Shown here in pieces: positions 1 to 48,516 of a stretch of DNA of 55,053 nucleotides. Where the stretch lies: NCBI GenBank assembly GCA_903846945.1, contig CAINCE010000042.1, positions 1 through 55,053 on the forward strand, written 5' to 3'. The translations under genes were made by a program, and so were the position numbers. The stretch comes from an uncultured bacterium (GTDB lineage Bacteria; Patescibacteriota; Minisyncoccia; Phycocordibacterales; PALSA-1337). Every line of letters begins with the position of its first letter. Position 1 is the first letter of the stretch. The notes under the pieces are model-generated. The model ran no database searches. It saw only the letters and a program-made list of their open reading frames with translations, and was not told the DNA's origin.

Positions 1-117
<117 letters not shown>

Positions 118-8198: not shown

Positions 8199-8285
8199 TT
8201 AGTGATTAGTGGCTAGTTTTTAGTGATTAGTATCCGCCAACCAGAGGAGCGATTTCTAATCACTAGTCACTAACCACTAGCCACT
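8199..8285. repeat. Hairpin element with heptamer-array arms (TAGTGAT/TAGTGGC family) around a GC-rich loop
   Basis: The left arm TTAGTGATTAGTGGCTAGTTTTTAGTGATTAGTA pairs imperfectly with the right arm TAATCACTAGTCACTAACCACTAGCCACT. The 24-nt loop is TCCGCCAACCAGAGGAGCGATTTC. Confidence 0.7.
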
Positions 8286-8341
8286 TGTTACTATTTATCT
8301 ACTTCTAATACTCTCTACTCTACCAAATGACCGATAAAGAA

Positions 8342-10692: not shown

Positions 10693-10808
10693 GATAAAAT
10701 CCTGATAAAAAAAGTATGAAGGAATGATAAAATATTAATGAAGGAATGATAAAAAAAGGTTCAAATTTCGATAAAATAGTTATGAAGGAATGATGAAGGA
10801 AATTAATG
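10693..10808. repeat. AT-rich GATAAAA/ATGAAGGA motif array, copy set B
   Basis: Same orientation and the same 47-bp core as 8384-8430. Confidence 0.75.
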
Positions 10809-11386: not shown

Positions 11387-13264
11387 ATGGAAATCCGCAA
11401 CATAGCTATCATCGCACACGTCGACCACGGTAAGACCACTCTTACCGACGCTATCATGACCCAATGTGGTCACGGTGACGAAGGTACCATGGACAGTAAT
11501 GCCCTCGAACAGGAGCGCGGTATCACCATATACGCAAAGAATACATCCGTTAACTACAAAGGTACCAAGATCAACATAGTCGACACCCCAGGCCACGCTG
11601 ACTTCGGTTCAGAAGTTGAGCGAGTGCTCCGTGCCATCGATGCAGTTCTACTCGTCGTCGACGCCCAGGAAGGTCCTATGCCGCAGACTCGCTTCGTCTT
11701 GAAGAAATCCCTTGAACTAGGTCTGAAGCCTATCGTCGTCATCAACAAGATCGACAAGCCAGCAGCCAATCCTGCTCGTGTGCACGACGAAGTCCTCGAG
11801 CTTTTCATGGAACTGGGTGCGCATGATTCTCAGATCGACTTCCCTACTATCTATGCTATCGGTCGCACTGGTGTCGCGAAGAAGTCCCTCACGGACGATT
11901 CGAAAGATCTCACACCACTATTAGATACTATTATTGAGTATGTTCCTGCGGCTAATGCAAAGGGTCTAGGGTTTAGGGTCGAGGGTATAGGAAGCACAAA
12001 GAAATCCGAACAAGGCCCTAAACCCTATACCCTAAACCCTATACCCTCGCTCACTGCGCAAGTATTTAACCTCGGCTATGACAACTTCCTCGGTCGTCTC
12101 GCAGTTTGCCGTATCTATTCTGGTACGATCAGAGATGGTCAAAATATATGGGTAAAGGATGTCAATGGCAAATCATTTACGGGTAAAGTGACGAAACTAT
12201 TTACATTTGAAGGAAAAAAGCGCCTCGAGACAGCGCAAGCTGAGGCGGGTGATATCGTCACCGTTGCTGGTGTTCCAGAAATATTTATTGGCGAAACCAT
12301 CACAGATAACGAGGCCACCGAGCCATTGCCAGCTATCAGTGTAGATGAACCAACCATCTCTCTACAATTCCTCGTAAACAATTCCCCATTTGCTGGAAAA
12401 GAGGGCACTTTCGTCACAGGTAGACAGATCCGCGAGAGACTCGAACGAGAACTAGAGACAAATGTCGGGCTCAAAGTTGATTTCTCCATGAATGAATTTT
12501 TTACCGTTTTTGGCCGAGGTGAACTTCACATCGGCATCTTGCTCGAGAATATGAGACGAGAAGGCTTTGAACTCCAAGTCTCTCAACCAAAGGTCATCAT
12601 CAAAGAAGAAAAAGATGCCGCGGGTAATATTACAAAAACTTTAGAGCCTTTCGAGGAAGTGATCATCGATACACCCCAAGAATTTTCTGGAACCATCATC
12701 GAAACTCTCGGCAAGCGCAAGGGTATCATGTCCAACATGACAACACATGGTAACCAAGTACGCATGGTTTTCGAGATACCAACTCGCGGACTACTAGGTT
12801 ATCGCAATGCATTTACCATCGATACGAAAGGTGAAGGCATCATGTCTAGTCGTGTCATCGGTTTTAGAGACCATGTCGGACTCATCGAGAAGCGCGAAAC
12901 AGGTTCTATGACATCGATGGTTTCTGGCAAGTCATTCGGTTTCTCATTATGGAACCTCCAGGACCGCGGCAGACTATTCATCGTTCCTGCTTCGGATATC
13001 TATGAAGGAATGGTCATCGGTGATACATCAAAGGGTGATGACCTAGAAGTAAACCCATGTAAAGGTAAGCAACTTTCTAACATGCGTTCATCTGGTAAAG
13101 ATGAAGCTCTCACATTGGTTCCACCATTTATCTTGTCGATCGAACGCGGTCTCGAACTCATGCGAGATGATGAGTACCTCGAGATTACTCCGAAAAATAT
13201 CAGACTCCGCAAGAAGTTTTTAACTGAGTTAGATAGAGCTAGGGCGAGGAGGAAGGATTTGTAA
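11387..13264 (+). CDS. typA: Translational GTPase TypA/BipA with an in-frame repeat insertion
   Basis: Motifs: [23 protein letters not shown]-terminal BipA-type region (LVPP...LEITP..IRLRK). Confidence 0.95.
11965..12048. repeat. Heptamer-arm hairpin (TAGGGTN / CCCTAWA) inside the typA reading frame
   Basis: The left arm TCTAGGGTTTAGGGTCGAGGGTATAGG pairs with the right arm CCCTAAACCCTATACCCTAAACCCTATACCCTC. The 24-nt loop is AAGCACAAAGAAATCCGAACAAGG. It is translated as [28 protein letters not shown]. Confidence 0.85.
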
Positions 13265-15636: not shown

Positions 15637-15674
15637 CATTTTCCATTTTGATTTTTCATTTTACATTTTCTATC
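15637..15674. repeat. Tandem heptamer array (CATTTTN)x5 abutting the start codon of the next gene
   Basis: Sequence is CATTTTC CATTTTG ATTTTTC ATTTTAC ATTTTCT ATC, then ATG at 15675. Confidence 0.85.
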
Positions 15675-17173: not shown

Positions 17174-20100
17174 TTATACCCTTCTCAATCCACACCACTC
17201 ACATTTTGGATCATCGCAGAACGACTTCACTATTTCCCCACTCCAAACTGCATCTACGAGTGATCGAATATTGTCTATGACAGACTTTTCGTCCTGTTCG
17301 GTTATCGGCAATGAAACAGTCGGGCATCTACCTTTCGCGTCTGGTGAGACGAATACTAGAGCAGGATGTATCCGCCTACCTTTCCACCTCTTATCATCAC
17401 CAACCAAGATCTTGTAAAAGACTAGCTGACGGAAATAATTACCATCAGAATTTTTCGTTTCACCCTTTATAGCATTTTCTGACATCGCCAATTTGGTTTT
17501 ATAATCAAACACAGTTACTTCATGCCCATTATCTAATATTGCATCCAGTTTCCCGTGAATAGGAATACTGATGATCTTTTCACTCGACTCCGTATCCCCA
17601 ATCGCCCATTTCATAAATCCTAAATCGTAAATCTTAAATCTCTGTATTGATTCCACCCAACTCTCAGTCAACACCGTACTTTTCTCGTCTTTCAGTGAGA
17701 AATGCGTAGAGAGGGCTCTAGCAACGGCGGGCATATCTTCAGCAAGTTCACTCTTTGCTAGCACCTTTTCTCTAGCCGACAAAAGTGATTTACTAAAATA
17801 CGCACTCACACTATCATCCATGATCTTTTGTATCTCTGATATATCTTCAACGACCTTGCTCGAACTCGCGACAGCCGTCCACACCCTAGACAGTGCCTCG
17901 TGCATCGCAGTACCCTTTTCCGCAGCAACAGAAGGTGCTTGAGGCATCTTCAGTATACTCTGATAGATGAACTGATTTGGGCATTTCAAGAAATGATTTA
18001 GCGAAGTCACAGAAAGACCTTTCTTGGTCAATGAATTCTTCGCAATGTCCAGTATCTTTTCATCAACGATCTTCCTTTGTTTTACCCTTTCGTCTACTAT
18101 TGATTCAGCACCATCAGATTTCGAGTCTCTTCTAAAAGACTTATTCTCACCAACGGAGATGGTCATCTGCCCACCTTCTACACCTTCGATGGTTGATGTT
18201 TCCTTCTCATACAACTTCTCCGCACCAAGGCGATCCAAAGTGACCTTCTTTATATGTTTTTCATCCAATTCATCGATAAATCGTAGAGGCGTCAAAGTCT
18301 TACCATCAGACTCTTCTAATGAAGTCATAACGACAGCGTGTTTCCTAGCGCGTGTCAGAGCAACATAGAATAGTCGTCGGACATCCTTAACCTCTGACTC
18401 TGTCGTCCTCTTTTTTGGCAATACGAACGAAGCCCCCTTCGGTCTCCCTATCCACGCTTCCTCAGTCGCATACGGTATGAAGACATAGTCGAACTCGAGA
18501 CCTTTACTACCATGTGCGGTCATAGCTTGGATAGGTAGATCAGGCGCTCCGACAGAAACCTTTACCGTGCGAGTTTCCGCAGATGTGCGATATGCAAGCA
18601 ATCTTGTAATGAGTTCCGCTGGATCAGAGATCCCTCCATCTCGAGCCAATGATTCTGCCAATGACACTATACCTCTCCAAACATTTATATAGATGGGGTC
18701 ACGATCGATAACCTTCGTATATCCAGACCTTTCTCCCGCATGCACGATGAATGCGATGGGACCATGTGACAATAGTGCCGCCCTGATACTAGAGAGTCCT
18801 GGTATCTTCGTATCAAATTCGTCGAATGTGCCACTGCGAAGCTTCTTCACTATCTCCGTCCCCGTAGCAAAGTCGAGTCCCCACATGCCGACAATGATGG
18901 TGTTAGCGACGAGGTCTACCCTTGTCGGATCAACGATGTACTGTAGTAAGTCGAAAAATATCTTACCAACAGGATGATTGAATATATCTATACTCCTCTC
19001 TGAAGAAATCTTTATGCCATGAAATTCACACAATCTGATAATGCGGTCTAGGTCACGATTTCGCCTTACTATTATTGCAACTGTTGGTCTATTATTCGCC
19101 GTCGATGGATTTGCATGACTGCCAATCGGGCGTTCACCATTGAGATGCATAGTATCACTACCCAACACATCATCACTCTCGTCTCCAGTCGCCATCAATC
19201 GTCTCAATCTTTCAATTAATTGAAATTCAATAGCCGTCGTATTCTCACCAGTAATGATCTCGATCGGTTCAGCTCTCTCCTTACTTCCAGATCTCAATCT
19301 GACACGCAGATCTCGATGTTCATCTTCCTCATAATTCTTTTCGATCATACTGAAACTGCCATCCAGAATACTCTGATGAGAACGATAGTTTTGGTCCAAC
19401 TTTATCACCTCCATATTTGGCCATTTCTTTTGAAGTTTAAGGAAATTCTCTACAGACGCACCTTGGAATCTGTAGATGGCTTGTTTCTCATCTCCGACGA
19501 TAAATACATTTGGTGTGTCGAAGAATTCTGCGATGATAGATAGAATGAAGTTCTGTGCATCATTGGTATCCTGATGTTCGTCGACATGGATGTACAGATA
19601 TCTCTCTTGGATCAGTCGCAGGAGCAACTCGTCTTCTCGCAAAGCCAATAGAAGTTCAATTATAAGGTCATTGAAATCCATTCTCTTCGCTTCGCGCTTA
19701 CCTGACTCGTATGCATCATAAATATCCGCAAAAAGTAGCGTCCTTTCGAGTTTTTCGATCTGCTCCTTTGCGTCAGCTTTCAACTGACCTTTGGTAGCGC
19801 CCCGAGTCGATATGGACTCCTCATCTGTTTGAATACGCTCGATTTCTGACCGTGCAAAAGCTCTAACCATCTCTGGTGTCATCGCCTCTCGTTTTGCCTC
19901 ATCTATACCACGGATAATCCCCGAAACATATACATCCGGTTTACCAGCTGGTCGCAAATCTACAAATTTCTGGTCTTCTATTATCTTTCTGATCAATGAT
20001 TCCTGCTCTATATCCGTCATCTGCTTCACCTCATTCAAATGTAAAAAGTGATCTTGATATTCAGATATTATTGACGATGCGAAACTGTGGAATGTGTGGA

Positions 20101-25885: not shown

Positions 25886-28800
25886 TTACACCTCCCCCAA
25901 CGCGGCATCCCTCTTTGCTGACATAGCATCGATCATCGCTTTCTTCGGAGATCCTTCGAAGCCTGTACCAGCTGGAACGAGGCGTCCGATGATGACATTT
26001 TCCATTAGACCTGTGAGATCATCATCAGCACCACGGACGGCATTAGCGATAAGGACGCGTGTAGTATGCTGGAACGAAGCAGCTGACAAGAAACTCTTAC
26101 GGGTTAGAGAAGTCTCTGTGATACCCATCACCAGCTTCTCAACCTTCGCAGGCTCACCTCCAGCTTCCTTAGCAGCTGCATTCTCTTCGCCGAGCTGTAT
26201 ATCATCGACAACCATGCCATCCGTAAGGTTCGTATTACCACCTTCCAAGACGCGGCGTCGACTGAACATCTGCTTCACGATGAGCTCGATGTGCTTTCGT
26301 GACACAGTCTCACCCTGCAGCTCATAGATCTTTCCAACTTCGGTGATGACATAATCCTTTGCTTTCTCTTCACCACCGTATTCGAAGACCTCATCGATAT
26401 CGGCAGATCCGTCCGTTAAGAGCTGTCCTTTCGTGACTCGATCCCCAACTCTCACTGTAGTAGCACGACGATATGGGAATAGATACTCAACTTCAGAACC
26501 TTTCTTTGCGGAACCCTTGGCCTTGTCCTCAATATCTGGAATAACATAGATCGCCTTTTCCTTACCCATATCTTTGAATCCTGTAACGACTCCATCTACT
26601 GTAGCAACTACGGCTGGATTCTTAGGTCGTCGCTTCTCAAAGACTTCCTCGACGCGAGGCAAACCTTGTGTGATGTCACCACCTAGTCCTGCTGCACCTC
26701 CCTGGTGGAATGTACGCATCGTGAGCTGAGTTCCAGGTTCTCCGATAGCTTGGGCAGCGACCGTTCCTACAGCTTCACCTAGTGCGATGAGAGAGTTCTT
26801 TCCTAGGTCGAGTCCATAACACATCGAACATACTCCACGAACAGTTTTACATGATAGAGGAGATCGAACATGAACATCAGTTATACCAGCCTCCTCGACT
26901 TTCGAAGCATCGGCCTTGGAAAGCAGGTGTCCTTTTTTAAATAGAACTACATCGTCTGCTGTTTTAATGTCTTGAGCAATGATACGACCTCGGATGTTCT
27001 TTGATAGAGGGATATTCATACCAGAGGCTGTCTGCTTGTGAATGACGATGCTGTCCTTGGTTCCACAGTCTTCCTCTGAGACAACGACGTCCTGAGCAAC
27101 CACGAACAACTTACGAGTTAGATATCCAGCTTTGGCAGTGTTTAGAGCCGTATCTGTGAGACCTTTACGAGAACCGTGAGTAGTGATGAAGTATTCGATA
27201 GGAGTCAAACCTTCCTTCGCACAGGATAGAATAGGAAACTCGATCGTCTCTCCAGAAACTGATGAGATGAGACCTTTCATACCTGCCATCTGTGTGATCT
27301 GTGATAGGGATCCGCGAGCACCTGATGTGATCATGTCATAAACGGAACCCATCTTGTCGAGAGATGCGGGAATAGCTTTCTCAACCTCACCCTTGGCTTT
27401 CTGCCAAATCTCGATATGTTTCCTGATGCGCTCTTCCTCTGTGAGGAGTCCTTCGTCAAATTGCTTGGAAACGATATCAGCTGAACGCTTGCCTCGTGCA
27501 ACTATCTCGCCCTTGGCTGCTGGAACCATGATGTCATCGATACCCCATGTAGTTCCTGAAAATGTAGCATAGCTAAATCCAAATGTTTTTATCTTGTCCA
27601 AGATAGGTGCGACATTCACTGCGCCGTGCAATGTGATCATGTCATCGATGATAGCGGCGATACGCTTGCGCCCAATCTCTTCATTGATGAATGGATAGTC
27701 TTCTGGAAGCATGTTGTTAAACAATATACGACCAACAGTTGTCTCGAACATCTGCTCCTGGAGCGCAGCATATTTCATGGTCTTTGGTGCGATCACGCGG
27801 ACCAACTCACGAAGGTCGATATCATCAAAATTGTACGCCAACTCTGCAGCTTGTGGGGACTCGAAGTATTTTAGATCAGTCTTAAAGTCCTTAAAGTCTG
27901 AAAGTCCTCCTGCGCTTGACTTTCGACTTTCGTCCGCCGGCTGGCGGATCGACTTTTCTTTTATTTTCGTCACCCAGAAACAGCCAAGGACGATATCCAA
28001 CATCTTTGCGACGACTGTAGGATCATTGTTACCTGGTTTCAATATGTTCTTGTCAGCCGCCATGATCTCTCGAGCTTCCATCTGTGCTTCATCAGAGAGT
28101 GGGACATGGACTGCCATCTGGTCACCGTCAAAGTCAGCATTAAAGGCTGTACATACTAGTGGGTGAACATGGATAGCATTACCCTCGATCAAAACCGGTT
28201 TGAAAGCTTGGATACCGAGTCTGTGTAGAGTAGGTGCACGGTTTAACAATACATATTTGCCTTTGATGACTTCTTCCAATATCTCCCAAACTTCCTTGGC
28301 ATCATCATCGATAAATCTGTTTGCCCCGCGTATGTTATATGCCAACTCTTTCTTGAGTAGTCCTCCAATGACAAATGGACGGAATAGTTCTAGTGCCATA
28401 TGCTTTGGCAGACCACACTCATCTATCTTCAATTCTGGACCAACGACGATCACGGATCGACCTGAATAGTCGACGCGCTTTCCGAGGAGGTTCTGACGGA
28501 AGAGACCTCTCTTTGATTTCAAACTATCTGAGAGTGACTTGAGTGCTCTCTTCTGGGCGGCGATAGCAGCCGCACCAGCGGATGAACTGTGACGGATAGA
28601 GTTGTCTATGAGAGCGTCTACTGCCTCCTGCAATATTCTTTTTTCATTTCTCAAAATAACTTCTGGAGCATTGATCTCCTTTAGTTTCAATAGGCGGTTG
28701 TTGCGGTTGATGACACGACGATAGAGATCGTTCACATCTGATGTAGCATAACGACCACCATCCAATGCAACCATAGGTCGGATACCTGGTGGGATGACTG

Positions 28801-30571: not shown

Positions 30572-30592
30572 GTTGATAATTTGATTTGATAA

Positions 30593-30847: not shown

Positions 30848-30859
30848 ACGGTATAGATG

Positions 30860-31132
30860 TTAAGACCTTAATGATTTAATCACTTCCTCAGCCGTGTAAA
30901 AAGGACCGATAAAGTTCCTGTTTGCTCGCGAATCGGCCAATAATCTATCAAGAACTTTCATTGTTCGCTTATTAGGCATCGGGTGATCAGCAAAAGTCAC
31001 TTTCCTTTCGGAAATAAACTCCTTGATGTAACCATTCACAACTGCATTTAGAGATACACCCAAAATATGAGATAACTCTTGAGCTTGCTCTTTGACAGAT
31101 TTATTTATCTTGATACTTAACATCGTTTGCAT
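30860..31132 (-). CDS. Type II antitoxin, RelB/DinJ family
   Basis: 90 aa. The N-terminus, IKINKSVKEQAQELSHILGVSLNAVVNGYIKEFI, looks like a ribbon-helix-helix. Confidence 0.7.
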   Translation of the reverse strand: MQTMLSIKINKSVKEQAQELSHILGVSLNAVVNGYIKEFISERKVTFADHPMPNKRTMKVLDRLLADSRANRNFIGPFYTAEEVIKSLRS

Positions 31133-34461: not shown

Positions 34462-34585
34462 GAGATTTACGATTTCCATGCCTGACGGCAGGCAGGAGGA
34501 TTTAAGATTTAAGATTTATGAATCGTCGCAAGCTCACCGAGAAATTGCATCATTCGTAAATATTAAATCTATATTCGTAAATCTT
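34462..34585. repeat. GATTTAN-family composite hairpin in the rpoB 5' region
   Basis: GGATTTAAGATTTAAGATTTATGAATCG pairs imperfectly with CATTCGTAAATATTAAATCTATATTCGTAAATC. There is an outer GATTTACGATTT copy and a small GCCTG-ACGG-CAGGC hairpin. Confidence 0.7.
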
Positions 34586-37464: not shown

Positions 37465-37472
37465 AAGTCCTT

Positions 37473-37635
37473 AGAGCCCATCCACCATCTCGTGGTACCC
37501 TACCAGGAAAGCTTTATTTTTAGGCGAAAAACAAGCTGGAGTTCGAGCCATAATGAATTATGGCGAGAACGAAGCGCAGTTTTGTAGCCAAAAATAAGGC
37601 TTTATATGGTAGGGGGAAGATGGTGGATGGGCTCT
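37473..37635. repeat. 163-bp long-hairpin / MITE-like element with an 18-bp perfect terminal inverted repeat
   Basis: AGAGCCCATCCACCATCT (37473-37490) is the exact reverse complement of AGATGGTGGATGGGCTCT (37618-37635). Inner arms pair partially. The apex is GCCATAAT-GAA-TTATGGC. Confidence 0.8.
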
Positions 37636-37706
37636 TAAAGTCTTTAAAGTCCGTAAAGTCATGACTACGACTTTATAGACTTTCCAACTTTATGGACTTT
37701 ATGGAC
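37634..37706. repeat. AAAGTC-family hairpin abutting the radC stop codon
   Basis: CTTAAAGTCTTTAAAGTCCGTAAAGTC / GACTTTATAGACTTTCCAACTTTATGGACTTTATGGAC around an 8-nt centre. Confidence 0.8.
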
Positions 37707-38437
37707 TATTTTATAATACTTACAAATCTATCTTTCGTGATGATGACATGGTCGAGAACAGTGATGCCCAAGATCTTCCCGGCTTGGACCAACTGTTTCG
37801 ATATCTCGACGTCCTGGTCACTAGGAGTAACTTCGCCTGATGGATGGTTGTGTGCCAATACTACCGCGGCGGCGTTGCACTCGATACCAGCGCGAAATAC
37901 TTCTCTAGGATGGATGATATTCGAATTGACTGTACCTATGGATATGACCTCATCTCGGATAATCTTGCTGTGACTATTTAGAAACAGTCCGCGAAGGTGC
38001 TCCTTGGGCAGATTCCTCATATCCTGCAAATAGTTGTATACATCTTCGGCATTTCTGATGGTGGTAAAACCAGACTGATTCTTCTCACCATACCTCCTAG
38101 CTATCTCACCTACGGCCACGATGATGCAGGCCTTGCCTATAGGGATATCCAGGTCACTCGAGAGATGCTCGGGATCAGTCTCAGACAATATGGTCTTTTC
38201 CCCATACTCCTTCATGATCCTGTTGGACAGCTCGATAACGTCTTCCTTGACCGAACCAGTATTCAAGATAACCGCTATAAGCTCACGCATAGTGAGCGAC
38301 TGGGGTCCTTGAGACATGAGTTTTTGTCGAGGCTTTTCTTCACTCGGCAAATCATGGATCGTGATCAGATAATCACGACTACTGGAGCCGTCTAGAAACA
38401 GCGAGTTGTCCAATATTTTGTATGCACTTTTTTGCAT
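37706..38437 (-). CDS. radC: RadC-like JAB/MPN domain protein
   Basis: HNHPSGEVTPSDQD JAMM-type motif. Start set at MQKSAYKIL, because the longer ORF would overlap the pyk 3' end. Confidence 0.85.
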   Translation of the reverse strand: MQKSAYKILDNSLFLDGSSSRDYLITIHDLPSEEKPRQKLMSQGPQSLTMRELIAVILNTGSVKEDVIELSNRIMKEYGEKTILSETDPEHLSSDLDIPIGKACIIVAVGEIARRYGEKNQSGFTTIRNAEDVYNYLQDMRNLPKEHLRGLFLNSHSKIIRDEVISIGTVNSNIIHPREVFRAGIECNAAAVVLAHNHPSGEVTPSDQDVEISKQLVQAGKILGITVLDHVIITKDRFVSIIK

Positions 38438-41729: not shown

Positions 41730-41770
41730 CACATTGCTAGGGGTATTCGGATTCGGTGCGCGCGCCAGGA
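41730..41770. repeat. 41-bp perfect direct repeat, copy 2 (overlaps the genuine 3' end of tRNA-Ile)
   Basis: Identical to 41571-41611. The two copies bracket a 118-bp GC-rich segment. Confidence 0.95.
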
Positions 41771-41829
41771 TTCGAACCTGGGACCCCGCCAGTATCAGTG
41801 GCGTGCTCTACCAACTGAGCTACGCGCGC
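41757..41829 (-). tRNA. tRNA-Ile (anticodon GAU)
   Basis: Manual cloverleaf: GCGCGCG acceptor, D-arm GCTCAGTTGGTAGAGC, anticodon arm CGCCA-CTGATAC-TGGCG, T-arm CCAGG-TTCGAAT-CCTGG. No encoded CCA. Confidence 0.9.
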
Positions 41830-41938
41830 ATTTACGGAGAGAGATATTTTGCTCAGAGAATAGGGAGAGCTGATACCTCAAACCAGTGAATATAGACTAG
41901 CAAAATACGCGGAGAATTGCAAAAAGACTTCCTATTTG

Positions 41939-42020
41939 TGGGCACGGGGAGAGTCGAACTCCCATGGATTACTCCACACGCTCCTGAAGCGTGCGCGGCT
42001 ACCAGTTACGCCACGTGCCC
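41939..42020 (-). tRNA. tRNA-Leu (anticodon CAG), class II with long variable arm
   Basis: Manual cloverleaf: GGGCACG acceptor, anticodon arm CACGC-TTCAGGA-GCGTG, variable arm TGGA-GTAA-TCCA, T-arm GGGAG-TTCGACT-CTCCC. Confidence 0.9.
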
Positions 42021-42165
42021 ATTCCTTACAAGGCGAGGCCTTGTCGGTGTCGGTTAACTATAATTCAATATTTGAAATGCTGCAAAGATGTGTGGATCAA
42101 TATCGGGCATGAATTTAGCGCCGCTGGGAATTTCCCAAACGGCGCTTTAACAAAACATCTTTACC

Positions 42166-42468
42166 TCACTTATTGGAGGTGTCAACCGCATGGTCGACTT
42201 GGACAGACCCATAGGTCTGCCGCAGGAAGGCATCGTGCGGTTTAATGTAGTATTTGTTCCACATGGCCATGCCCTCGCTCAGAAGGACGATGGCGACAAG
42301 TGCAACCAACACCGACCGGAACAATAACCTCCGGTCGAGGTCATTCCTCAACCGCAGCTCCTCCAGCGGCTCACTGGGCAGACGTGGCCGACCACCGGCC
42401 AAGTCATTCATCTGCTCACACTTATTCTTCATAGTTTTTTTCTTTGCGGCTAATACAATTAGCCACAT
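42166..42468 (-). CDS. Hypothetical small single-TM protein in a GC-richer patch
   Basis: 100-aa ORF preceded by TTGACT-17-TATGAT. One TM helix (LLFRSVLVALVAIVLL). Confidence 0.4.
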   Translation of the reverse strand: MWLIVLAAKKKTMKNKCEQMNDLAGGRPRLPSEPLEELRLRNDLDRRLLFRSVLVALVAIVLLSEGMAMWNKYYIKPHDAFLRQTYGSVQVDHAVDTSNK

Positions 42469-42486
42469 TGTTTGTGCACTGTCAAT

Positions 42487-42515
42487 ATCATAGCACTATT
42501 CGACTAGAAAGTCAA
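42487..42515 (-). promoter_or_regulatory. Candidate sigma-70 promoter
   Basis: On the minus strand: TTGACT, 17-nt spacer, TATGAT. It ends 18 nt before the ATG at 42468. Confidence 0.45.
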
Positions 42516-42531
42516 GGGGGACAAATAGAAG

Positions 42532-42558
42532 AGACCGCAGTGGAATGCACTGCGGTCT
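42532..42558 (-). terminator. Intrinsic terminator (11-bp perfect stem)
   Basis: AGACCGCAGTG-GAATG-CACTGCGGTCT, followed on the minus strand by CTTCTATTT. Confidence 0.5.
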
Positions 42559-42575
42559 GATGAGAAGCGAAACAC

Positions 42576-42773
42576 TCAATCGTGGCTACTAGCCTCAGTG
42601 AATTGAGACTCTTGATCACATTCGCTGATGATCGCTAAAAAGTCGGCATTTGGAGTCGACTCGTATATGTAACATTCCCTCCCGTGCATCACATGGACTG
42701 TCCCCGAAACATCCTGTGATCCTTGCGCGCCGGTCTGTGTCTGACCCAGAAATATCTTTACATTTCCGTTCAT
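42576..42773 (-). CDS. Hypothetical 65-aa protein
   Basis: ORF sits between the rplE terminator and the 42532-42558 terminator. No family recognised. Confidence 0.35.
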   Translation of the reverse strand: MNGNVKIFLGQTQTGAQGSQDVSGTVHVMHGRECYIYESTPNADFLAIISECDQESQFTEASSHD

Positions 42774-42939: not shown

Positions 42940-43518
42940 CTATTTCTTTCCTTCTACTATCTCTGCTTTCTTGAGAGGCAATCCCAAGTATTCTAGAAAA
43001 GCTAGAGTGGACTTTTGGTTATCCGAGGTTGTGACGATAGTTATAGCAAAACCAAAAACATCCTTAAGGTCTTCATCTGAAGTCTCGGCAAAGATGGTGT
43101 GCTCTTTGATACCCATAGTATAGTTCCCCATAGCATCGACAGATGTACGAGAGAGCCCACGGAAGTCTTTTGTACGAGGGAGTGAGATGTGGATGAGTCG
43201 ATCTAGAAACTCACACATGCGCTTGCCACGGAGAGTTACCTGATAACCGATAGGGTCACCAACACGAGTCTTGAATGTTGCAATAGCTTTCTTGGTAGCA
43301 CGCACAGCTGGCTTTTGACCAGTGATGCGGGCGAGTCTCTCAGACATGAGCTCAATCTTTTTCTTGTCTTTGACAGATCCGAAACCACTAGAGATAACCA
43401 CCTTGACGAGGCGAGGTGACTGCATCGGGTTCTTCAAATTCAATGGGACTTTCAGGGTCTTGAATGAATCTTTATTTAGTTCGTATGTTGATGTGTATGC
43501 CATAGATTTATTACTCAA
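42940..43518 (-). CDS. rplE: 50S ribosomal protein L5
   Basis: PRLVKVVISSGFG...RGKRMCEFLDRLI...LPRTKDFRGL. Confidence 0.95.
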   Translation of the reverse strand: MSNKSMAYTSTYELNKDSFKTLKVPLNLKNPMQSPRLVKVVISSGFGSVKDKKKIELMSERLARITGQKPAVRATKKAIATFKTRVGDPIGYQVTLRGKRMCEFLDRLIHISLPRTKDFRGLSRTSVDAMGNYTMGIKEHTIFAETSDEDLKDVFGFAITIVTTSDNQKSTLAFLEYLGLPLKKAEIVEGKK

Positions 43519-43521
43519 ATC

Positions 43522-43605
43522 GATTTACGATTTAAGATTTATGATTTAAGAATGGCGCGACTTCTAGGTGACTATTCTTAAATCCTAAATCCTAAATCTT
43601 AAATC
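43522..43605. repeat. Hairpin element: (GATTTAN)x4 arm, 20-nt GC-rich loop, (NTAAATC)x4 arm
   Basis: The 32-nt arms are complementary at 29/32 positions. The loop is GGCGCGACTTCTAGGTGACT. It fills the rplX-rplE spacer. Confidence 0.9.
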
Positions 43606-43607
43606 AT

Positions 43608-43826
43608 TTAACTGGTTTTCTTCGCCTTACTAGCATCGAATGGCATCGCAACTTCGACAGTCTGACCTTTCTGTCCTTCCTTTCGTGCTCTCTCATGCTT
43701 CTTTACGGTATTAATACCTTCGACTACGACTTTATTGATCGCAGGAAAAGCCTTGACAACCTTGCCGGTCTTGCCCTTATCGTCTCCTGAAAGCATCTTG
43801 ATTGTGTCTCCTTTTTTGATATGCAT
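43608..43826 (-). CDS. rplX: 50S ribosomal protein L24 (short form)
   Basis: KOW motif KKGDTIKMLSGDDKGKTGKV. Confidence 0.9.
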   Translation of the reverse strand: MHIKKGDTIKMLSGDDKGKTGKVVKAFPAINKVVVEGINTVKKHERARKEGQKGQTVEVAMPFDASKAKKTS

Positions 43827-43836
43827 TGTAGTTTAG

Positions 43837-43870
43837 TTGAAAGTCTGTAAAGTCTTAAAGTCCATAAAGC
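43837..43870. repeat. AAAGTC-family tandem array (single arm)
   Basis: Sequence is TTGAAAGTC TGTAAAGTC TTAAAGTC CATAAAGC. Confidence 0.8.
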
Positions 43871-43871
43871 A

Positions 43872-44243
43872 CTAGACAATCTCGGAGGCCTTTGAAGCTA
43901 TCGTCTTGAATCCTGCCTCAGCGACTTCACGAGGGATAGGACCAAAGATGCGACCAGCGATCGGCTCTTTCTTGTCCTTTTCGATGATAACTACTGCATT
44001 CTCATCAAATCGGATGTATGAACCATCCTTCCGACGAGTAGGCTTGACCTGACGAACGACGACAGCATGCAGGACATCTTTCTTCTTTACCGCCTTTCGA
44101 GGTTCCGCCTTCTGTACTGACAAGACTACGATTTCACCGATCTCCGCATATCGCTTGCGTGTCGCACCGAGCACCTTGAATATACGACCGACTTTTGCTC
44201 CGGAGTTATCAGCTATTTTTACAATTGTTCTTGGTTGAATCAT
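43872..44243 (-). CDS. rplN: 50S ribosomal protein L14
   Basis: MIQPRTIVKIADNSGAK... Confidence 0.95.
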   Translation of the reverse strand: MIQPRTIVKIADNSGAKVGRIFKVLGATRKRYAEIGEIVVLSVQKAEPRKAVKKKDVLHAVVVRQVKPTRRKDGSYIRFDENAVVIIEKDKKEPIAGRIFGPIPREVAEAGFKTIASKASEIV

Positions 44244-44255
44244 TGAAGTTAGATT

Positions 44256-44329
44256 GAATTATGAAATATGATATATGAATTATGATTTATGGATTTTTCG
44301 TATCTCATATTTCTTATCTCATATCTCAT
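44256..44329. repeat. ATGANNT-family heptamer arms forming an imperfect hairpin
   Basis: ATGAAAT ATGATAT ATGAATT ATGATTT ATGG / CGTATCT CATATTT CTTATCT CATATCT CAT. The right arm ends on the rpsQ stop codon. Confidence 0.7.
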
Positions 44330-44583
44330 GCGATCACTTTGAATGCCTTCATCTTCGATATCGGTCTGCAAGCCTCTACTGTTGCCTTGTCACCGATCTT
44401 CTTTGTATTACCTACATCATGTGCCATGATCCTCGTCCTCTTGGTCATGAACTTGTGGTACTTGGCATGCTTCACATATCTCTCGACGACGACGACTGAT
44501 GTGTCCTTCATCTTGTCAGATACAACAACACCGGAAAAAGTCTGGCGTTTTGGTTCTAGTTGAGTTGTTTGTGTTGTGGTCAT
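44326..44583 (-). CDS. rpsQ: 30S ribosomal protein S17
   Basis: FSGVVVSDKMKDTSVVVVERYVKHAKYHK. Confidence 0.93.
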   Translation of the reverse strand: MTTTQTTQLEPKRQTFSGVVVSDKMKDTSVVVVERYVKHAKYHKFMTKRTRIMAHDVGNTKKIGDKATVEACRPISKMKAFKVIA

Positions 44584-44629
44584 GTGATGGTTGATACTAC
44601 TTGAAATCTTCTGAAATGTCCAGTTTCTG

Positions 44630-44709
44630 GAGCTAAGAGCTTGGAGGTAAGAGATAAGATTTTGAATATATGAGTTTTGCGATTAATCTTATCTCTAAGC
44701 TCTTAACTC
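44630..44709. repeat. GAGNTAA-family heptamer arms forming a hairpin
   Basis: GAGCTAAGAGCTTGGAGGTAAGAGATAAGATT versus the reverse complement of AATCTTATCTCTAAGCTCTTAACTC. The right arm overlaps the last codons of rpmC. Confidence 0.8.
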
Positions 44710-44891
44710 TTGTGCTTCTGCATCTCCGTCATTATCCTCGCTATGTCCTTTCTAAGGTTCCGGCCTTCCTTTACGTTCTTGGCCTTGGCACCAGCAGAAC
44801 CGAATCGGAATGCTCGTAGAGCCTCCCTCTTCTCTGTGATGAGTCTCGTAAGGTCAGCGACTGGTTTATTTGTTATTTCTTTGAATTTCAT
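44703..44891 (-). CDS. rpmC: 50S ribosomal protein L29
   Basis: 62 aa. LRAFRFGSAGAKAKNV...LRKDIARIMT. Confidence 0.9.
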   Translation of the reverse strand: MKFKEITNKPVADLTRLITEKREALRAFRFGSAGAKAKNVKEGRNLRKDIARIMTEMQKHKS

Positions 44892-44900
44892 GGGATATTA

Positions 44901-44998
44901 GTCGAAAGTCTTAAAGTCTATAAAGTCATAAAGTCCAGCGCTTTCATTATTCATTTTTGCATCGTAATTTTTCATTTTGATGTTTACATTTTCAATTA
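44901..44998. repeat. Two juxtaposed arrays: AAAGTC family (44901-44936), then CATTTTN family (44941-44998)
   Basis: GTCGAAAGTC TTAAAGTC TATAAAGTC ATAAAGTCC, then TTCATTATTCATTTTTGCATCGTAATTTTTCATTTTGATGTTTACATTTTCAATTA. Confidence 0.8.
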
Positions 44999-45421
44999 TG
45001 TTCTACTGACCACCTTGGTCTTTACTGGTAGCTTCGTTCCTGCCTTGCGCAGTGCCTCTGCGGCGACGACAGCATCGACCCCGTCGATCTCGAACATGAT
45101 GCGACCAGGCTTCACCTCAGCTATAAAGCCGACTGGATCTCCTTTTCCTTTTCCCATTTTTACTTCGGCCGGCTTCTGTGTAAATGGATGATCTGGGAAA
45201 ATGCGGATCCAAACCTTGCCTGACTTCGTCGCATAACGAGCCATAACCTTTCGTGCCGCCTCAATCTGGTTTGAAGTGATGCGAGCATACTTCATGGCTT
45301 TCAGTCCATATGAACCAAAGGCAATCTTAACGCCACGAGTGTCTGCGTGTGACTGTTCTTTGTCCGGATGCGTACGCATCGTGAACCACTTGCGATGTTT
45401 TACTTTTTTGGGGAATAACAT
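44996..45421 (-). CDS. rplP: 50S ribosomal protein L16
   Basis: MLFPKKVKHRK...RMGKGKG-like KMGKGKGDPVGF. Confidence 0.95.
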   Translation of the reverse strand: MLFPKKVKHRKWFTMRTHPDKEQSHADTRGVKIAFGSYGLKAMKYARITSNQIEAARKVMARYATKSGKVWIRIFPDHPFTQKPAEVKMGKGKGDPVGFIAEVKPGRIMFEIDGVDAVVAAEALRKAGTKLPVKTKVVSRT

Positions 45422-45431
45422 GGTAGTAATT

Positions 45432-45462
45432 TAATGTAAAATGGAAAAGTTAAAATGGAAAA
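45432..45462. repeat. NAAAATG-family array, complementary to the CATTTTN array on the other side of rplP
   Basis: Sequence is TAATGTAAAATGGAAAAGTTAAAATGGAAAA. Confidence 0.8.
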
Positions 45463-46140
45463 TTATTTTGCCGTAACCTGATCCTTCTTGAATATCTCGC
45501 CCTTGTAGATCCAGACCTTGATACCGATATCGCCGTATGTCATATGCGCCTTCTCACGGGCAAAATCGATGTCGGCACGCAATGTCTGTAGAGGTATCTG
45601 GCCTTTCTTGAGCTCCTCTGTTCTAGCGATCTCAGCGCCACCTAGGCGGCCTCCTAGACGAACACGGATACCCTTTACATCTCTGTTAGCCATAACCTTC
45701 TCTATAGTCTGTTTCATAACACGGCGAAATGGTAGACGCTTCTCAAGTGACTCTGCGACCATCATCGCTGCTATAGCTGCATTGGATTCTGGGCTCCTGA
45801 CTTCCTCGATATCAACCTTTAACTCTTGACCTGCAACTTCGACTTTGTTCTTACGGAGTATCTTTAGGATCTTCTCGCGTAACTTCACAACACCGTCACC
45901 AGATTTGCCTATGAGCATACCTGGGCGAGAAGTTTTGATGATGACACGGAAAACTTTCTGACTGCGTTCGATATCCAAGCCACCGATATAATTTGCACGC
46001 AACTCCTTCTGTAGGAATTCACGGATGATAAGGTCACCTTTTAGGGCGATTCGGTAAGGCTTGTCCACCAAAAACCAGCGACTCTTCCAATCGCGAATGA
46101 TGCCTAGTCTGTGTGAATATGGATGTACGGTGTGGGACAT
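45463..46140 (-). CDS. rpsC: 30S ribosomal protein S3
   Basis: HPYSHRLGIIRDWKSRWF. KH and S3-C regions. Confidence 0.95.
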   Translation of the reverse strand: MSHTVHPYSHRLGIIRDWKSRWFLVDKPYRIALKGDLIIREFLQKELRANYIGGLDIERSQKVFRVIIKTSRPGMLIGKSGDGVVKLREKILKILRKNKVEVAGQELKVDIEEVRSPESNAAIAAMMVAESLEKRLPFRRVMKQTIEKVMANRDVKGIRVRLGGRLGGAEIARTEELKKGQIPLQTLRADIDFAREKAHMTYGDIGIKVWIYKGEIFKKDQVTAK

Positions 46141-46153
46141 GGTATTAGTTAAT

Positions 46154-46278
46154 AGTCTATAAAGTCTTTAAAGTCTTTAAAGTCATAAAGTCCATAAAGT
46201 TATTTGTTTTTCTCTACCTTTTCCGTTTTCGACTTTACGGACTTTATGGACTTCTCTGACTTTGGACTTTTAGACTTC
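46154..46278. repeat. AAAGTC-family hairpin whose second arm is the coding sequence of the L22 C-terminal tail
   Basis: The arm at 46154-46200 (TATAAAGTC TTTAAAGTC TTTAAAGTC ATAAAGTCC ATAAAGT) is complementary in motif to 46231-46278 (GACTTTAC GGACTTTAT GGACTTCT CTGACTTT GGACTTTT AGACTTC), which lies inside rplV. Confidence 0.8.
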
Positions 46279-46619
46279 TTCGCCTTCGCTTCGATAGGTG
46301 CCAATGTGATCGATACATGACTCGTCCTCTTCTTTATGGGAAAAGCTGACCCTCGTGCCATCGGCTGACTGCGTTTCAAGACATATCCCTGATCGACGCG
46401 GATCTCCTTTACAAAAAGCGCATCCTTGCCAATCTGGTGATTGTGAGATGCGTTTGCGACTGCTGAAGCCAGAAGGTCACCTAGAGGACTAGTTGCCTTC
46501 TTGACTGCACCCATCAAAATATTCTCAGCTACCACAACACTCTTGCCGCGGATCATGTTTGCGACTAGGCGGACTTTGCGTGGTGATATTCGGTAGTTTT
46601 TGAGTGAGGCGGTGATCAT
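46200..46619 (-). CDS. rplV: 50S ribosomal protein L22 with Lys/Ser-rich tail
   Basis: RISPRKVRLVANMIRGK...RSQPMARGSAFPIKKRTSH. The tail is KSKSPKSEKSIKSVKSKTEKVEKNK. Confidence 0.93.
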   Translation of the reverse strand: MITASLKNYRISPRKVRLVANMIRGKSVVVAENILMGAVKKATSPLGDLLASAVANASHNHQIGKDALFVKEIRVDQGYVLKRSQPMARGSAFPIKKRTSHVSITLAPIEAKAKKSKSPKSEKSIKSVKSKTEKVEKNK

Positions 46620-46620
46620 A

Positions 46621-46655
46621 TAAATTTAAAATGTAAAAATCAAAATTGAAAATGG
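46621..46655. repeat. NAAAATG-family array in the rpsS-rplV spacer
   Basis: Sequence is TAAATTTAAAATGTAAAAATCAAAATTGAAAATGG. Confidence 0.75.
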
Positions 46656-46661
46656 TGGGAA

Positions 46662-47015
46662 TTATGCTTTCTTTGCAACTACGGCTGTAGCGGCTTCCTT
46701 GGCGGACTTGGCTGCGTTCATCTCGGCTTCCTTGGCCTTCATCTCGAGTTCCTTTTGCATCTTTCCTCCATGTCTCACGAACTTACGAGTCGGTGAGAAT
46801 TCACCGAGGCGATGTCCTACCATGTCCTCAGTAACGAAAACGTCCACATGTATCTTGCCATTATGGACGCCAAAAGTAAAACCAACCATCTCTGGAGAAA
46901 TCTGTGAGCGGCGTGCCCATGTCTTTATGGTTCCGGCTGTTGCAGGCTTCTTGCCCTCGATCTTCCGAAGGAGTCGCTCTTCAACATATGGTCCTTTTTT
47001 TAGTGATCGTGACAT
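46662..47015 (-). CDS. rpsS: 30S ribosomal protein S19 with Ala/Lys-rich tail
   Basis: [15 protein letters not shown]...[17 protein letters not shown]. Confidence 0.95.
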
Positions 47016-47268: not shown

Positions 47269-48516
47269 TCAAAATTTCCCAACTTTTTTGACTTTTTTTC
47301 CTTTGATCAATACCATTTGGTTGTCTGTAATCGGCATAACTGGACATTTGGCTTTCTCCTCAAACTCATCAACTTCACCTTTGAGAATAGTTTTGAAATG
47401 AGGAAAAACGGCAACATCTGTCAAACCAAGTCCTGAAAGATTCATTAATCCAACAACATTTACATCACCCTCTGTACCCCACCCTGCAATCTCTATGCTA
47501 TTGCCAGCAATAATGCTTCCTGCGGATACTCCGATGTACATCGTTCCACTATTTACTGAATCAATAATATACTTGTCTATGTTAGTTTCCCTTATTTTTT
47601 GCAAGATAGCATAAGTATTTCCGCCACAGACATATATTATGTCAGCATACTCCGGTTTGAATGGCTTATGTAAGTTGAGCATACTGATCTCTTTGAAACC
47701 GATAGACTCCAATTGTTTTCTTGAAGCCATGACATAAGACTCTTCTTCCTTTGTTTTGGTATAGCTCACCATCAAAACCTTACACCATTCAACTTGCTTT
47801 GGAGTCTCTTTCAGCAATACTTCTACCGTTTCAGGGTTGATAAAGCCACCAGAAGTTAGGAGCAACTTCTTTATAGTGAACTTGCGAAGCTCGCTCTCAA
47901 CTAGAGTCCTTTGAACATCCGTCTTCTGAATCAATGATAACAATGGTTTGGTCGAATTCCTCTCATCTTCCGAATCTGGAATGGAAAATCCGACATATTC
48001 GACTTTCTTCTTGGTTCGATACCGCACCCAATCAATAGCAGGTATAAGGTCAGCGTCAGAGCTGACTACGATGGCCGTGTCATAGCGATCATCTATCGCT
48101 GCTGTTATAAGGTCGGTTGCCATCTTAACATCTATTCCTTTCTCACGAAGTCTTTCAAATGTAATCTTCTTGATGCCTGCTTTCAATAACTTCTTGTGAT
48201 CCTTGACTCTACCATCAATAATCAACTCTTCTTCACGAACTTTCAGAGTACTAGTCTTTATTTCCCAATTATCTGATTTTAATCTCGAAAATAGTGCCGT
48301 TTGACGCGACATAGCAAAAACGCTTTTAGGATTTCCTTCTCGTTCCCTAACTGAACCAACATACAGACGCTTTCCCATATTTGAAATAGCCCTATCACCT
48401 GCTAAGAAACTCGCAAATGCATCGTAATCAAATTGCACATCCCTAAGACCGAGCTTTTTGAGAGCCAAGTGATAGAAGTTGCTACCATCTATAAATATCT
48501 GCACTCTTTCTGACAT
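47269..48516 (-). CDS. Fusion protein: N-terminal NYN/LabA-like (PIN-fold) domain + C-terminal peptidase S51 (PepE/cyanophycinase-like) domain
   Basis: N-terminus VQIFIDGSNFYH...VVSSDADLIPA (NYN Asp residues). C-terminus IYVCGGNTYAILQKI...MYIGVSAGSIIAG...VFPHF (S51 Ser/His context). Confidence 0.65.
   Translation of the reverse strand: MSERVQIFIDGSNFYHLALKKLGLRDVQFDYDAFASFLAGDRAISNMGKRLYVGSVREREGNPKSVFAMSRQTALFSRLKSDNWEIKTSTLKVREEELIIDGRVKDHKKLLKAGIKKITFERLREKGIDVKMATDLITAAIDDRYDTAIVVSSDADLIPAIDWVRYRTKKKVEYVGFSIPDSEDERNSTKPLLSLIQKTDVQRTLVESELRKFTIKKLLLTSGGFINPETVEVLLKETPKQVEWCKVLMVSYTKTKEEESYVMASRKQLESIGFKEISMLNLHKPFKPEYADIIYVCGGNTYAILQKIRETNIDKYIIDSVNSGTMYIGVSAGSIIAGNSIEIAGWGTEGDVNVVGLMNLSGLGLTDVAVFPHFKTILKGEVDEFEEKAKCPVMPITDNQMVLIKGKKVKKVGKF

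Follow-up and report, generated by a model that had tools for sequence, protein, structure and literature searches.

Introduction

Arrays of short tandem units are known from several bacterial groups. Heptamers are the commonest unit of long simple-sequence repeats (LSSRs) in bacteria (Mrazek 2007 as cited in PMC4679880), and polymerase slippage has been proposed to account for LSSRs and short tandemly repeated repetitive sequences (STRRs) (PMC4679880). Cyanobacterial STRRs as well as the TAACTGA arrays of marine Beggiatoaceae lie upstream of start codons, including those within ribosomal protein operons (MacGregor 2015, PMC4679880), and a translational role of TAACTGA, i.e. binding of S1, Csp or CsrA, has been proposed as a hypothesis (PMC4679880). 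In Xanthomonas, each genome has 70–75 convergent, i.e. inverted, pairs of arrays of the heptamer GGGAATC (Rehm et al. 2015, PMC4692102). Here we describe elements made of tandem 7–9-nt units that fill all eight spacers between rpsS and rplE in a 55,053-nt contig of an uncultured bacterium (CAINCE010000042.1 of assembly GCA_903846945.1; this whole stretch is called the window below). These lineage-specific elements are the counterpart, in the candidate phyla radiation (CPR), of heptameric LSSRs and STRRs, and we lean towards the view that they represent indel-prone, probably mobile palindromic elements along with arrays of heptamer simple-sequence repeats.

As with LSSRs and STRRs, tandem 7-nt units are over-represented, mostly intergenic, spread over many loci and variable in copy number between relatives. 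LSSRs and STRRs, however, come in one to three motif families per genome, whereas here at least seven are found in 55 kb; moreover, units are 7–9 nt long with variable junction bases, many arrays form inverted pairs, the ribosomal protein operon is saturated, essential genes carry in-frame arrays, and the host is a CPR bacterium with a genome of less than 1 Mb. The Xanthomonas arrays share the plan of array, short unique spacer and complementary array, with the ability to form stem–loops or cruciforms, and they too are intergenic, lie near the ends of open reading frames (ORFs) and vary in length between related species. Yet they consist of a single G-rich, quadruplex-forming motif at positions mostly conserved between species, in contrast to the many, mostly AT-rich families without G-quadruplex potential that show presence/absence and cassette swaps between near-identical strains in our case. 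With the Beggiatoaceae TAACTGA arrays, the elements have in common heptamers placed a few nucleotides before start codons that lack a canonical ribosome-binding site, also at internal junctions of the ribosomal protein operon; TAACTGA, however, is one motif, occurs nearly always as direct repeats (with one inverted case) and has no reported hairpin cassettes or in-frame paired arrays. A preliminary description of this DNA stated that the elements match no known repeat class, which is correct for REP, Correia, ERIC and CRISPR repeats and, with respect to conservation over the full length, for RPEs, but overlooked heptameric LSSRs/STRRs and the Xanthomonas inverted arrays. Our literature search found no description of such elements in CPR bacteria. 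New here are the combination of known traits with many motif families per genome and with family identity confined to the arms around unique loops, the saturation of a ribosomal protein operon and the documented swapping of cassettes between strains in a CPR host.

Host, operon and array census

Judged from its sequence, the host can be placed among the ultra-small CPR bacteria as a Taylorbacteria-like member of the Paceibacterota; the closest genomes are Patescibacteria/Paceibacterota metagenome-assembled genomes, several of them labelled Candidatus Taylorbacteria. The block (42940–47015, minus strand) comprises rpsS, rplV, rpsC, rplP, rpmC, rpsQ, rplN, rplX and rplE (NCBIfam), separated in this order by 42, 59, 41, 104, 119, 82, 45 and 104 nt. 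The range of 41–119 nt given earlier therefore stands, in contrast to a median of 11 nt in relatives, but the last spacer measures 104 nt with the corrected rplE ATG at 43503 rather than the 89 nt that follow from the TTG start at 43518 chosen by the ORF tool. In five other samples, seven contigs (ENA and Logan assemblies) match the window at 100% identity wherever they cover the block, so that the arrays are real and reproducible and not an assembly artefact. Contigs do break inside arrays, and often end there, as would be expected if low-complexity reads had produced artefacts or chimeras; with the same sequence coming out of independent assemblies, which represent at least five samples and three pipelines, and with orthologous arrays in other species, the probability of such an origin is practically nil and we consider it essentially excluded.

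Tandem Repeats Finder (TRF) detected 37 non-redundant arrays in the window as compared to 7.95 in dinucleotide shuffles; for periods 7 and 14, 16 arrays were observed against approximately 1.1. Nineteen of the 25 arrays with periods of 7–9 are located in the non-coding 13.3% of the window (p = 2e-12). Within the block, TRF and an inverted-repeat scan recovered the motif arrays where they had been reported, with TRF arrays at 43840–43869, 44255–44329, 44683–44711, 44905–44935, 45433–45463, 46154–46200 and 46622–46653, and TRF also retrieved the distant copies at 15637, 17614, 27878, 34499 and 37634. Most of the families are AT-rich and G3 tracts occur solely in the AGGGTNT family; GATTTAN is present at three loci, GACTTTA at six, CATTTTN at four and AGCCACT/TAGTGAN at three. 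At eight window loci, the same unit occurs close by on opposite strands, and the resulting arms are 21–37 nt long and 76–91% complementary. Hairpins of the same family have loops that are unrelated to each other within the window, and the 'GC-rich loop' attributed to all of them is a feature of some elements only. Two further regularities were considered and dropped. Mismatches are concentrated at one position of the unit only weakly (0.50 versus 0.46 expected, p = 0.02), i.e. a unit of 'six conserved plus one variable base' is not a good description, and a polarity with a G-rich 5' arm and a G-poor 3' arm is present in the window but not in relatives (24 versus 20).

Turnover between close strains

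Strains closer than the available relatives were found by exact-protein look-ups, and among them the rplX–rplE spacer exists in three alleles of 104, 83 and 28 nt. Allele A, that of the window (43504..43607, minus strand), is a 104-nt spacer with a GATTTAN hairpin at 43522–43605, in which (GATTTAN)4 and (NTAAATC)4, i.e. two 32-nt arms at 43522–43553 and 43574–43605, are complementary at 29/32 positions (91%) around a 20-nt loop, exactly as first described (free energy dG -31, z -6.9; here and below, z-scores for spacers compare folding on the mRNA strand with that of shuffles). In allele B (L174), the entire interval from stop to start codon is replaced by 83 nt with an AGGGTAT/CCCTAAA hairpin (dG -36). 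Its flanks nevertheless match the window in rplN (372/372), the rplN–rplX spacer (45/45), rplX (218/219) and the first 367 nt of rplE, i.e. on either side no difference occurs over at least 360 nt except for one substitution 4 nt before the stop codon. Allele C (L186) lacks exactly 76 nt of allele A, the missing piece being bounded by 6-bp TTAAAT direct repeats; it is identical to the window in rplX and in the first part of rplE, and the rplN–rplX array is the same, with two bases differing just before the rplX start codon. The allele-B hairpin is a paralogue of an element inside the bipA gene of the window (see below), with a 3' arm identical at 24/24 positions and a loop that also starts with AGCACAA; conservation over the full length was not seen between these two copies, whose loops share AGCACAA only.

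Arrays also differ in unit number in a second close strain, with 86–88% identity to the window at fourfold-degenerate (4-fold) sites. It keeps the rpsS–rplV array with a 1-nt deletion (L184), its rplV–rpsC array measures 44 nt compared with 59 nt in the window (L184), and its rpsC–rplP array has 22 nt (L169), where the window has 41 nt and L001 has 27 nt; the BipA linker of this strain carries a different palindrome. Given the three alleles and these differences in unit number, slippage-type resizing as well as gain, loss or replacement of cassettes are directly observed.

Distribution among relatives

More distant relatives, genomes such as L001–L080, were compared by counting spacers in the 60 that have all eight junctions. 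Their median spacer is 11 nt and 35 of them have none or one of at least 35 nt, whereas all eight spacers reach this length, as in the window, in a single relative (L034). Strong hairpins (z < -3) account for 45 of the 136 long spacers in relatives; at least one arm is significantly periodic in 29 of these 45 and both arms are periodic in 15, with period 7 being commoner than periods 8 and 9. The array–loop–array plan is patchily distributed, and its motifs differ by genome (TTAGCTN, ACGAATN, CTAATTN, ATAAAGTT and others). Hairpins start at a median of 3 nt past the stop codon and end at a median of 9 nt ahead of the start codon, which places the element between the stop codon and an ancestral short leader. 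As GTDB relatives are saturated at 4-fold sites (about 46–49% identity), patchiness alone says little about rate, and we have withdrawn it (at about 49% identity) as a proof of fast turnover. The genomes L081 and L082 are identical and offered no population variation to compare.

Some relatives harbour families with conserved termini (L075/L077, L034). In L075 and L077, it is a common family with ACGAATN arms and conserved termini, which occupies up to four spacers. In addition, ribosomal protein spacers of L028, L064 and L075 carry a non-periodic family with ACCCAGC...GCTGGGT stems and a conserved GATTTTTATAATCGCTTCGCTCGTTAAAAATC tail, which resembles MITEs, i.e. miniature transposable elements with inverted repeats.

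Folding of the eight spacers

That every spacer pairs into long hairpins applies to half of them: four beat their shuffles (rplV–rpsC, z -7.9; rplX–rplE, z -6.9; rpmC–rpsQ, z -3.0; rpsQ–rplN, z -2.6), three have a minimum free energy (MFE) of 0 and the remaining one does not differ from its shuffles. The strongest hairpin, in the rplV–rpsC region (46141..46280, minus strand like the entire block; dG -43.1; inverted repeats I6–I13), combines a 3' arm in the spacer, i.e. the GACTTTA(N1-2) array at 46154–46200, with a 5' arm at 46231–46277 that lies within the rplV frame and codes for the K/S-rich C-terminal tail of L22 (aa 106–139). The rpmC–rpsQ spacer (44584..44702) forms a GAGNTAA/TTANCTC hairpin at 44630–44711 (dG -23.1; inverted repeats I2, I5), and the weak rpsQ–rplN hairpin (44244..44325; dG -13.6) pairs an ATGAGAT-type 5' arm with a G-free ATCATAA/TTCATAT 3' arm.

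The three unstructured spacers with an MFE of 0 are single-arm, G-poor arrays: rpsS–rplV (46620..46661; TRF), a CATTTTN leader array with the module CCATTTTCAATTTTGATTTTTACATTTTAAATT and 97% identity to the L22–S3 spacer of L084; rpsC–rplP (45422..45462), a CATTTTN leader array that begins immediately after the TAA stop codon; and rplN–rplX (43827..43871; TRF), a GACTTTA array. The rplP–rpmC spacer (44892..44995; z -0.19) contains an inverted CATTTTN copy (44941–44998, with a 91% module match at 44965–44998) followed by a sense GACTTTA array (44901–44936) and forms no hairpin locally. The idea that rplP is bracketed by complementary arms did not hold up, as the respective duplex (-9.4 kcal/mol) is equalled by 15% of shuffles; the rplP trailer finds its complement in the rplV leader, at a distance of 1.6 kb, with a duplex of -18.9 kcal/mol that none of 500 shuffles matches.

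Folding does not differ between sense and antisense strands (19 versus 25, p = 0.42), and seven of the nine window hairpins fold at least equally well in antisense. This strand equality favours palindromes at the DNA level over stems optimized as RNA; selection on the sense-strand RNA via G–U pairs was accordingly discarded as an explanation, there being neither asymmetry nor G–U enrichment on the sense strand. In an Rfam scan with gathering and E-value thresholds, a tRNA alone passes the gathering threshold, with plant miRNA precursors, i.e. generic AU-rich hairpins, as sub-threshold matches. Terminator-like matches are not enriched in the window (6 versus 3.9 +/- 1.9) and none coincides with an array hairpin, no such hairpin being followed by a U-tract, and promoter-like matches are no more frequent than in shuffles (11 versus 7.6 +/- 2.9).

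One promoter-like sequence, TGGACA-17-TAGTAT (44622–44594, core TCAAGTAGTATC), follows the rpmC–rpsQ hairpin and is conserved at the same junction in L001, L008, L014, L015 and L084. Its conservation accounts for the length of at least 34 nt of this spacer in the closest relatives; in more distant ones the spacer shrinks to 1–12 nt. This pattern suggests an internal operon promoter upstream of rpsQ.

Copies outside the operon

Three loci with arrays lie in frame within essential ORFs, i.e. those for BipA/TypA, RpoC and a UvrD/PD-(D/E)XK helicase-nuclease, a placement that the preliminary description had missed. The BipA element (11961..12047, plus strand) is an 87-nt AGGGTNT/ANACCCT hairpin (dG -45.2, z -6.4) encoding aa 191–221 and separates the G domain from domain II, at the very place of the 6-residue linker of E. 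coli BipA. This linker is hypervariable in relatives (0–70 aa), with about 4 to about 70 residues of unrelated sequence in 25 close homologues, and in the two strains compared at the DNA level it is encoded by different, non-array palindromes. The rpoC arrays (27878..27934, minus strand; GAAAGTC/GACTTTN; TRF, Pfam and translation) encode the peptide ESRKSSAGGLSDFKDFKTD at aa ~568–587 in a variable surface loop of RpoC, as aligned to structures in the PDB; their fold is not significant (z -0.5). The helicase-nuclease carries a single-arm (GATTTAN)4 array (17614..17641, minus strand; TRF, Pfam and translation) with the peptide QRFKIYDLGFMK; as aligned with L081 and L083, this segment of the protein varies among relatives.

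Other copies are intergenic. Upstream of rpoB, 30–160 nt 5' of the gene, a GATTTAN-family hairpin with a nested GC-rich stem–loop is found at 34462..34585 (minus strand; dG -39.1, z -4.7; inverted repeat I16). A GACTTTA-family array hairpin is located at 37634..37707 (minus strand; dG -23.4, z -5.0; TRF), and a TAGTGAN/NTCACTA hairpin at 8199..8293 (minus strand; dG -40.6, z -6.2; inverted repeats I2, I5) lies 8 nt upstream of a pilin-like gene. The CATTTTN leader array at 15637..15674 (plus strand; TRF and module match), directly 5' of an RNase-H-like gene, has an orthologue in L081 whose units follow another pattern. Positions 1..116 at the contig end (plus strand; TRF) are taken up by a perfect (AGCCACT)x16.6 array, and a short AGCCACT copy at 2507–2524 is situated just upstream of the mnmA ATG. 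The listed start of this gene falls within the latter array, the likely ATG being at 2505; the mnmA ORF (1133–2515, 460 aa) has its tRNA_Me_trans HUP domain in two stretches, which suggests an internal insertion.

Conserved arms and the CATTTTN module

Orthologous elements can also be followed across genomes that are saturated at 4-fold sites. Between the window and L081, the arms of the BipA element are 84% and 78% identical, compared with 42% for the loop; of its 29 pairs, 21 are unchanged, two compensatory and six broken. The G-free 3' arm of the rpsQ–rplN element is identical to that of L001 at 30/31 positions, its 5' arm at about 78%. A module of about 30 nt within the CATTTTN family (TTTTCCATTTTGATTTTTACATTTTAAATT) begins immediately after the TAA stop codon and ends 5–12 nt before the ATG; the window has three sense copies and one inverted copy, L084 has four, and others are present in L001, L008, L042, L081 and L176-type strains. 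Its copies are 89–100% identical at non-orthologous junctions in several species. In L008 and in L002, a hairpin consists of the CATTTTN leader module as 3' arm and of its complement as 5' arm, which supports the sequence of array first, inverted duplication second.

Of 21 informative single-arm periodic spacers, 17 contain more C than G when read on the sense strand (sign test p = 0.007). Pre-start leaders at all ribosomal protein junctions of the window and L001–L080 are extremely G-poor (5% G), often have ACTACC or ACTAxC directly before the ATG and lack a Shine–Dalgarno (SD) motif, as do the short intercistronic spacers of the clade, with 5% G on the sense strand. Such SD-less, G-poor short spacers would fit the loss of the anti-SD sequence that has been reported for one Parcubacteria subgroup (PMC9297842).

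What maintains the elements?

An important question is whether these elements persist by their own dynamics or because the host selects for them. Among the roles initially proposed, 'selfish slippage-generated DNA' agrees best with the data, as unit number varies, cassettes are swapped, most relatives are without elements and both strands fold equally well; also, the same arm family recurs at unrelated loci, even in frame within essential genes. Mobile repeat DNA fits gain, loss, swapping and resizing at the strain level better than a conserved regulatory structure does. On this view, the elements exist in two states. In one, single-arm arrays reach from the stop codon almost up to the start codon that follows, a few nucleotides short of it, and are G-poor and unstructured on the mRNA strand; in the other, inverted array pairs around a unique loop constitute DNA-level palindromes that would be transcribed as long hairpins. 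Arrays would grow and shrink by replication slippage, hairpins would arise by inverted duplication of an array (template switching) or by insertion of a palindromic element, and deletions between short direct repeats at their flanks could remove them. Purifying selection might then leave elements only where they do little harm, i.e. starting about 3 nt past the stop codon and ending some 9 nt ahead of the next start codon, with the ancestral pre-start leader retained, or alternatively in frame in permissive protein linkers, and it would also favour a G-poor sense orientation near start codons. Effects of the hairpins on the mRNA, such as processing, stability or insulation of cistrons, would be by-products rather than the reason for their existence.

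This explanation, i.e. repeat DNA that is indel-prone and probably mobile, has to cope with several observations that weigh against it. Across saturated genomes, the arms of orthologous elements are kept far better than their loops, as seen for BipA and for the rpsQ–rplN 3' arm, and this is a classic signature of selection on a stem or motif; the near-identity of CATTTTN modules at non-orthologous junctions of several species points in the same direction. For the 76-nt indel, gain and loss of the segment are equally good readings. Neither a partner of the transposase type nor a conserved internal sequence turned up, nor was there a consistent duplication of the target site: the TTAAAT direct repeat at the indel is itself part of the array unit, and there is no duplication at the BipA, allele-B or 34462 copies. 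The parallels with mobile palindromes are correspondingly partial. Ogata and co-workers are said to have reported in 2000 that Rickettsia palindromic elements (RPEs) insert in frame in ORFs. Such in-frame palindromic insertion is seen here at BipA, and, in likeness to RPEs and MITEs, palindromes of about 70–150 nt occur both between genes and at permissive surface sites of proteins, to which they add peptide segments; RPEs, however, are families conserved over their full length, whereas our elements share an arm motif only, with unique loops and arms made of tandem arrays. Terminal inverted repeats as in MITEs are present (arms of 21–37 nt, 76–91% complementary), but the window contains neither whole-sequence copies nor a related autonomous transposon, as loops are unrelated and so are the ends of its single insertion sequence (IS)-like unit. 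REPs and REPINs resemble the elements as short intergenic palindromes that form inverted, hairpin-forming doublets and evolve dynamically within genomes (PMC3116915), yet REPs are GC-rich 20–40-mers with a conserved head motif and a RAYT partner (PMC3116915), in contrast to AT-rich array arms without a common head motif. CRISPR repeats of 24–48 nt alternate with unique spacers of similar length, unlike the contiguous 7–9-nt units found here.

The conserved arms could alternatively mean that the host selects the hairpins as RNA structures punctuating the polycistronic ribosomal protein mRNA, be it as sites for RNase III or other processing, as barriers to 3'-exonucleases or as insulators of stability and translation. 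Four spacers and most other array hairpins of the window do beat shuffles (z -2.6 to -7.9), arms are conserved well above neutral sites while loops are not, and placement is stereotyped, about 3 nt past the stop and about 9 nt before the start codon. On the other hand, strains whose flanks are identical may have the hairpin, lack it or have another in its place, most relatives make do with spacers of 1–20 nt, half of the eight operon spacers are unfolded, folding is strand-symmetric with no G–U enrichment in the sense strand, elements also occur within ORFs, and no Rfam family matches. We therefore regard this alternative as unlikely, and since the elements are polymorphic among strains, RNase III processing or mRNA stabilization would appear unlikely as their primary reason, as far as the compared sequences can tell. 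Even less can be said for intrinsic terminators or attenuators that would turn each ribosomal protein gene into a separately regulated unit, a role also suggested initially. While stems are strong and intergenic and a conserved promoter-like element follows the rpmC–rpsQ hairpin, no array hairpin has a U-tract, terminator-like matches are not enriched (6 versus 3.9 +/- 1.9) and lie elsewhere, and the stems are AU-rich with periodic mismatches; this role is highly improbable and essentially excluded.

A different kind of function would reside in the arrays themselves: the single-arm, G-poor ones, especially the CATTTTN module TTTTCCATTTT...ACATTTTAAATT, could be intercistronic initiation signals in a clade without SD pairing, acting either as unstructured landing pads for S1 or the 30S subunit or as internal promoters for mRNAs with short leaders, with hairpins as secondary inverted duplicates. 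The module's reach from the TAA stop to 5–12 nt before the ATG (window, L084, L001, L008, L042, L081, L176) would suit such a function, as would its 89–100% identity between non-orthologous spacers, compared with about 49% at 4-fold sites, the excess of C over G in 17 of 21 periodic single-arm spacers, the SD-less short spacers with 5% G, the reported anti-SD loss in a Parcubacteria subgroup (PMC9297842) and the use of the module as 3' arm of some hairpins (L008, L002). But spacers of 9 nt suffice in relatives, close strains differ in unit number, an inverted copy sits 3' of rplP and a G-rich array upstream of mnmA, promoter-like matches do not exceed shuffles (11 versus 7.6 +/- 2.9), and AT-rich low complexity inflates apparent similarity, so that we take this possibility to be quite doubtful. 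The same reserve applies to its generalized form, in which heptad-repeat cassettes with CATTTTN as prototype, extending from the stop to near the next start codon, would be ribosome (re)loading or internal promoter signals in anti-SD-less Paceibacterota, an idea for which we see little chance. If it were true, this would be a previously undescribed, SD-independent system of intercistronic initiation on mobile cassettes, whose inverted duplication yields operon-punctuating hairpins and, within genes, new peptide segments.

According to a survey, inverted repeats are denser in parcubacterial phyla than in any other phylum, which has so far been unexplained (PMC13155455), and with data at the scale of the window the elements likely provide a concrete sequence-level basis for this record. 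If they are indeed the active repeat elements that we favour, streamlined CPR genomes of less than 1 Mb would carry such DNA even in the most conserved bacterial operon, and with it peptide segments added to BipA, RpoC, the helicase-nuclease and L22. The rplX–rplE junction offers a natural allelic series (no hairpin, hairpin A, hairpin B) that could be used for studying SD-less re-initiation across structured spacers of 30–120 nt. In practical terms, arrays break metagenome assemblies and shift gene calls, e.g. for the L22 tail and the false TTG start of rplE, and they could act as strain-typing markers.

Other repeats and genes in the window

Two potential vehicles of the arrays were rejected. 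An IS-like unit at the window end (53692–55034), with a weak match to the rve integrase core (28.8 bits, below cut-off), has 13-bp terminal inverted repeats (AATGACACCGAAG/CTTCGGTGTCATT) that are unrelated to the arrays, and in viral contigs there was no exact match to the AGGGT arm or the CATTTTN module that would point to a phage origin.

Adjoining the GACTTTA hairpin, a 173-nt near-perfect hairpin (37468–37640; dG -82.7, z -12.6) lies 5' of rpsP and of an ORF of 120 aa; neither Rfam nor the compared loci contain a counterpart, and it could be a palindromic element or an unannotated structured RNA. Another small dispersed repeat, the palindromic motif GCATAGGTCTGACCT(C), is repeated two to three times in several intergenic regions (window 10835–10875; in L083, 5' of BipA and in the HisRS–RNaseH spacer). 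Arrays of TGATAAA-containing 11/22-nt repeats (8343–8416 and 10703–10758) flank ComEC and pilin/type IV pilus genes, are unrelated to the heptamer elements and are kept in relatives (L081 ~9200–9330; L083 ~9380–9450); this conservation suggests an array of binding sites for a regulator.

The ribosomal protein cluster itself is interrupted at both ends. A NYN/Peptidase_S51 gene rather than rplB precedes rpsS (47269–48516), while in L176–L184, which have the same S19 protein, this place is taken by an AAA_14/DUF4143 gene. The region 3' of rplE (41755–42773) holds two small ORFs of no assigned family together with tRNA-Leu and tRNA-Ile, rpsN and rpsH not being there. Finally, three ORFs are situated between rpoB and rpoC (29678–31132), two of which (90 aa and 297 aa) belong to no assigned family while the third encodes a YafQ/ParE-type toxin.

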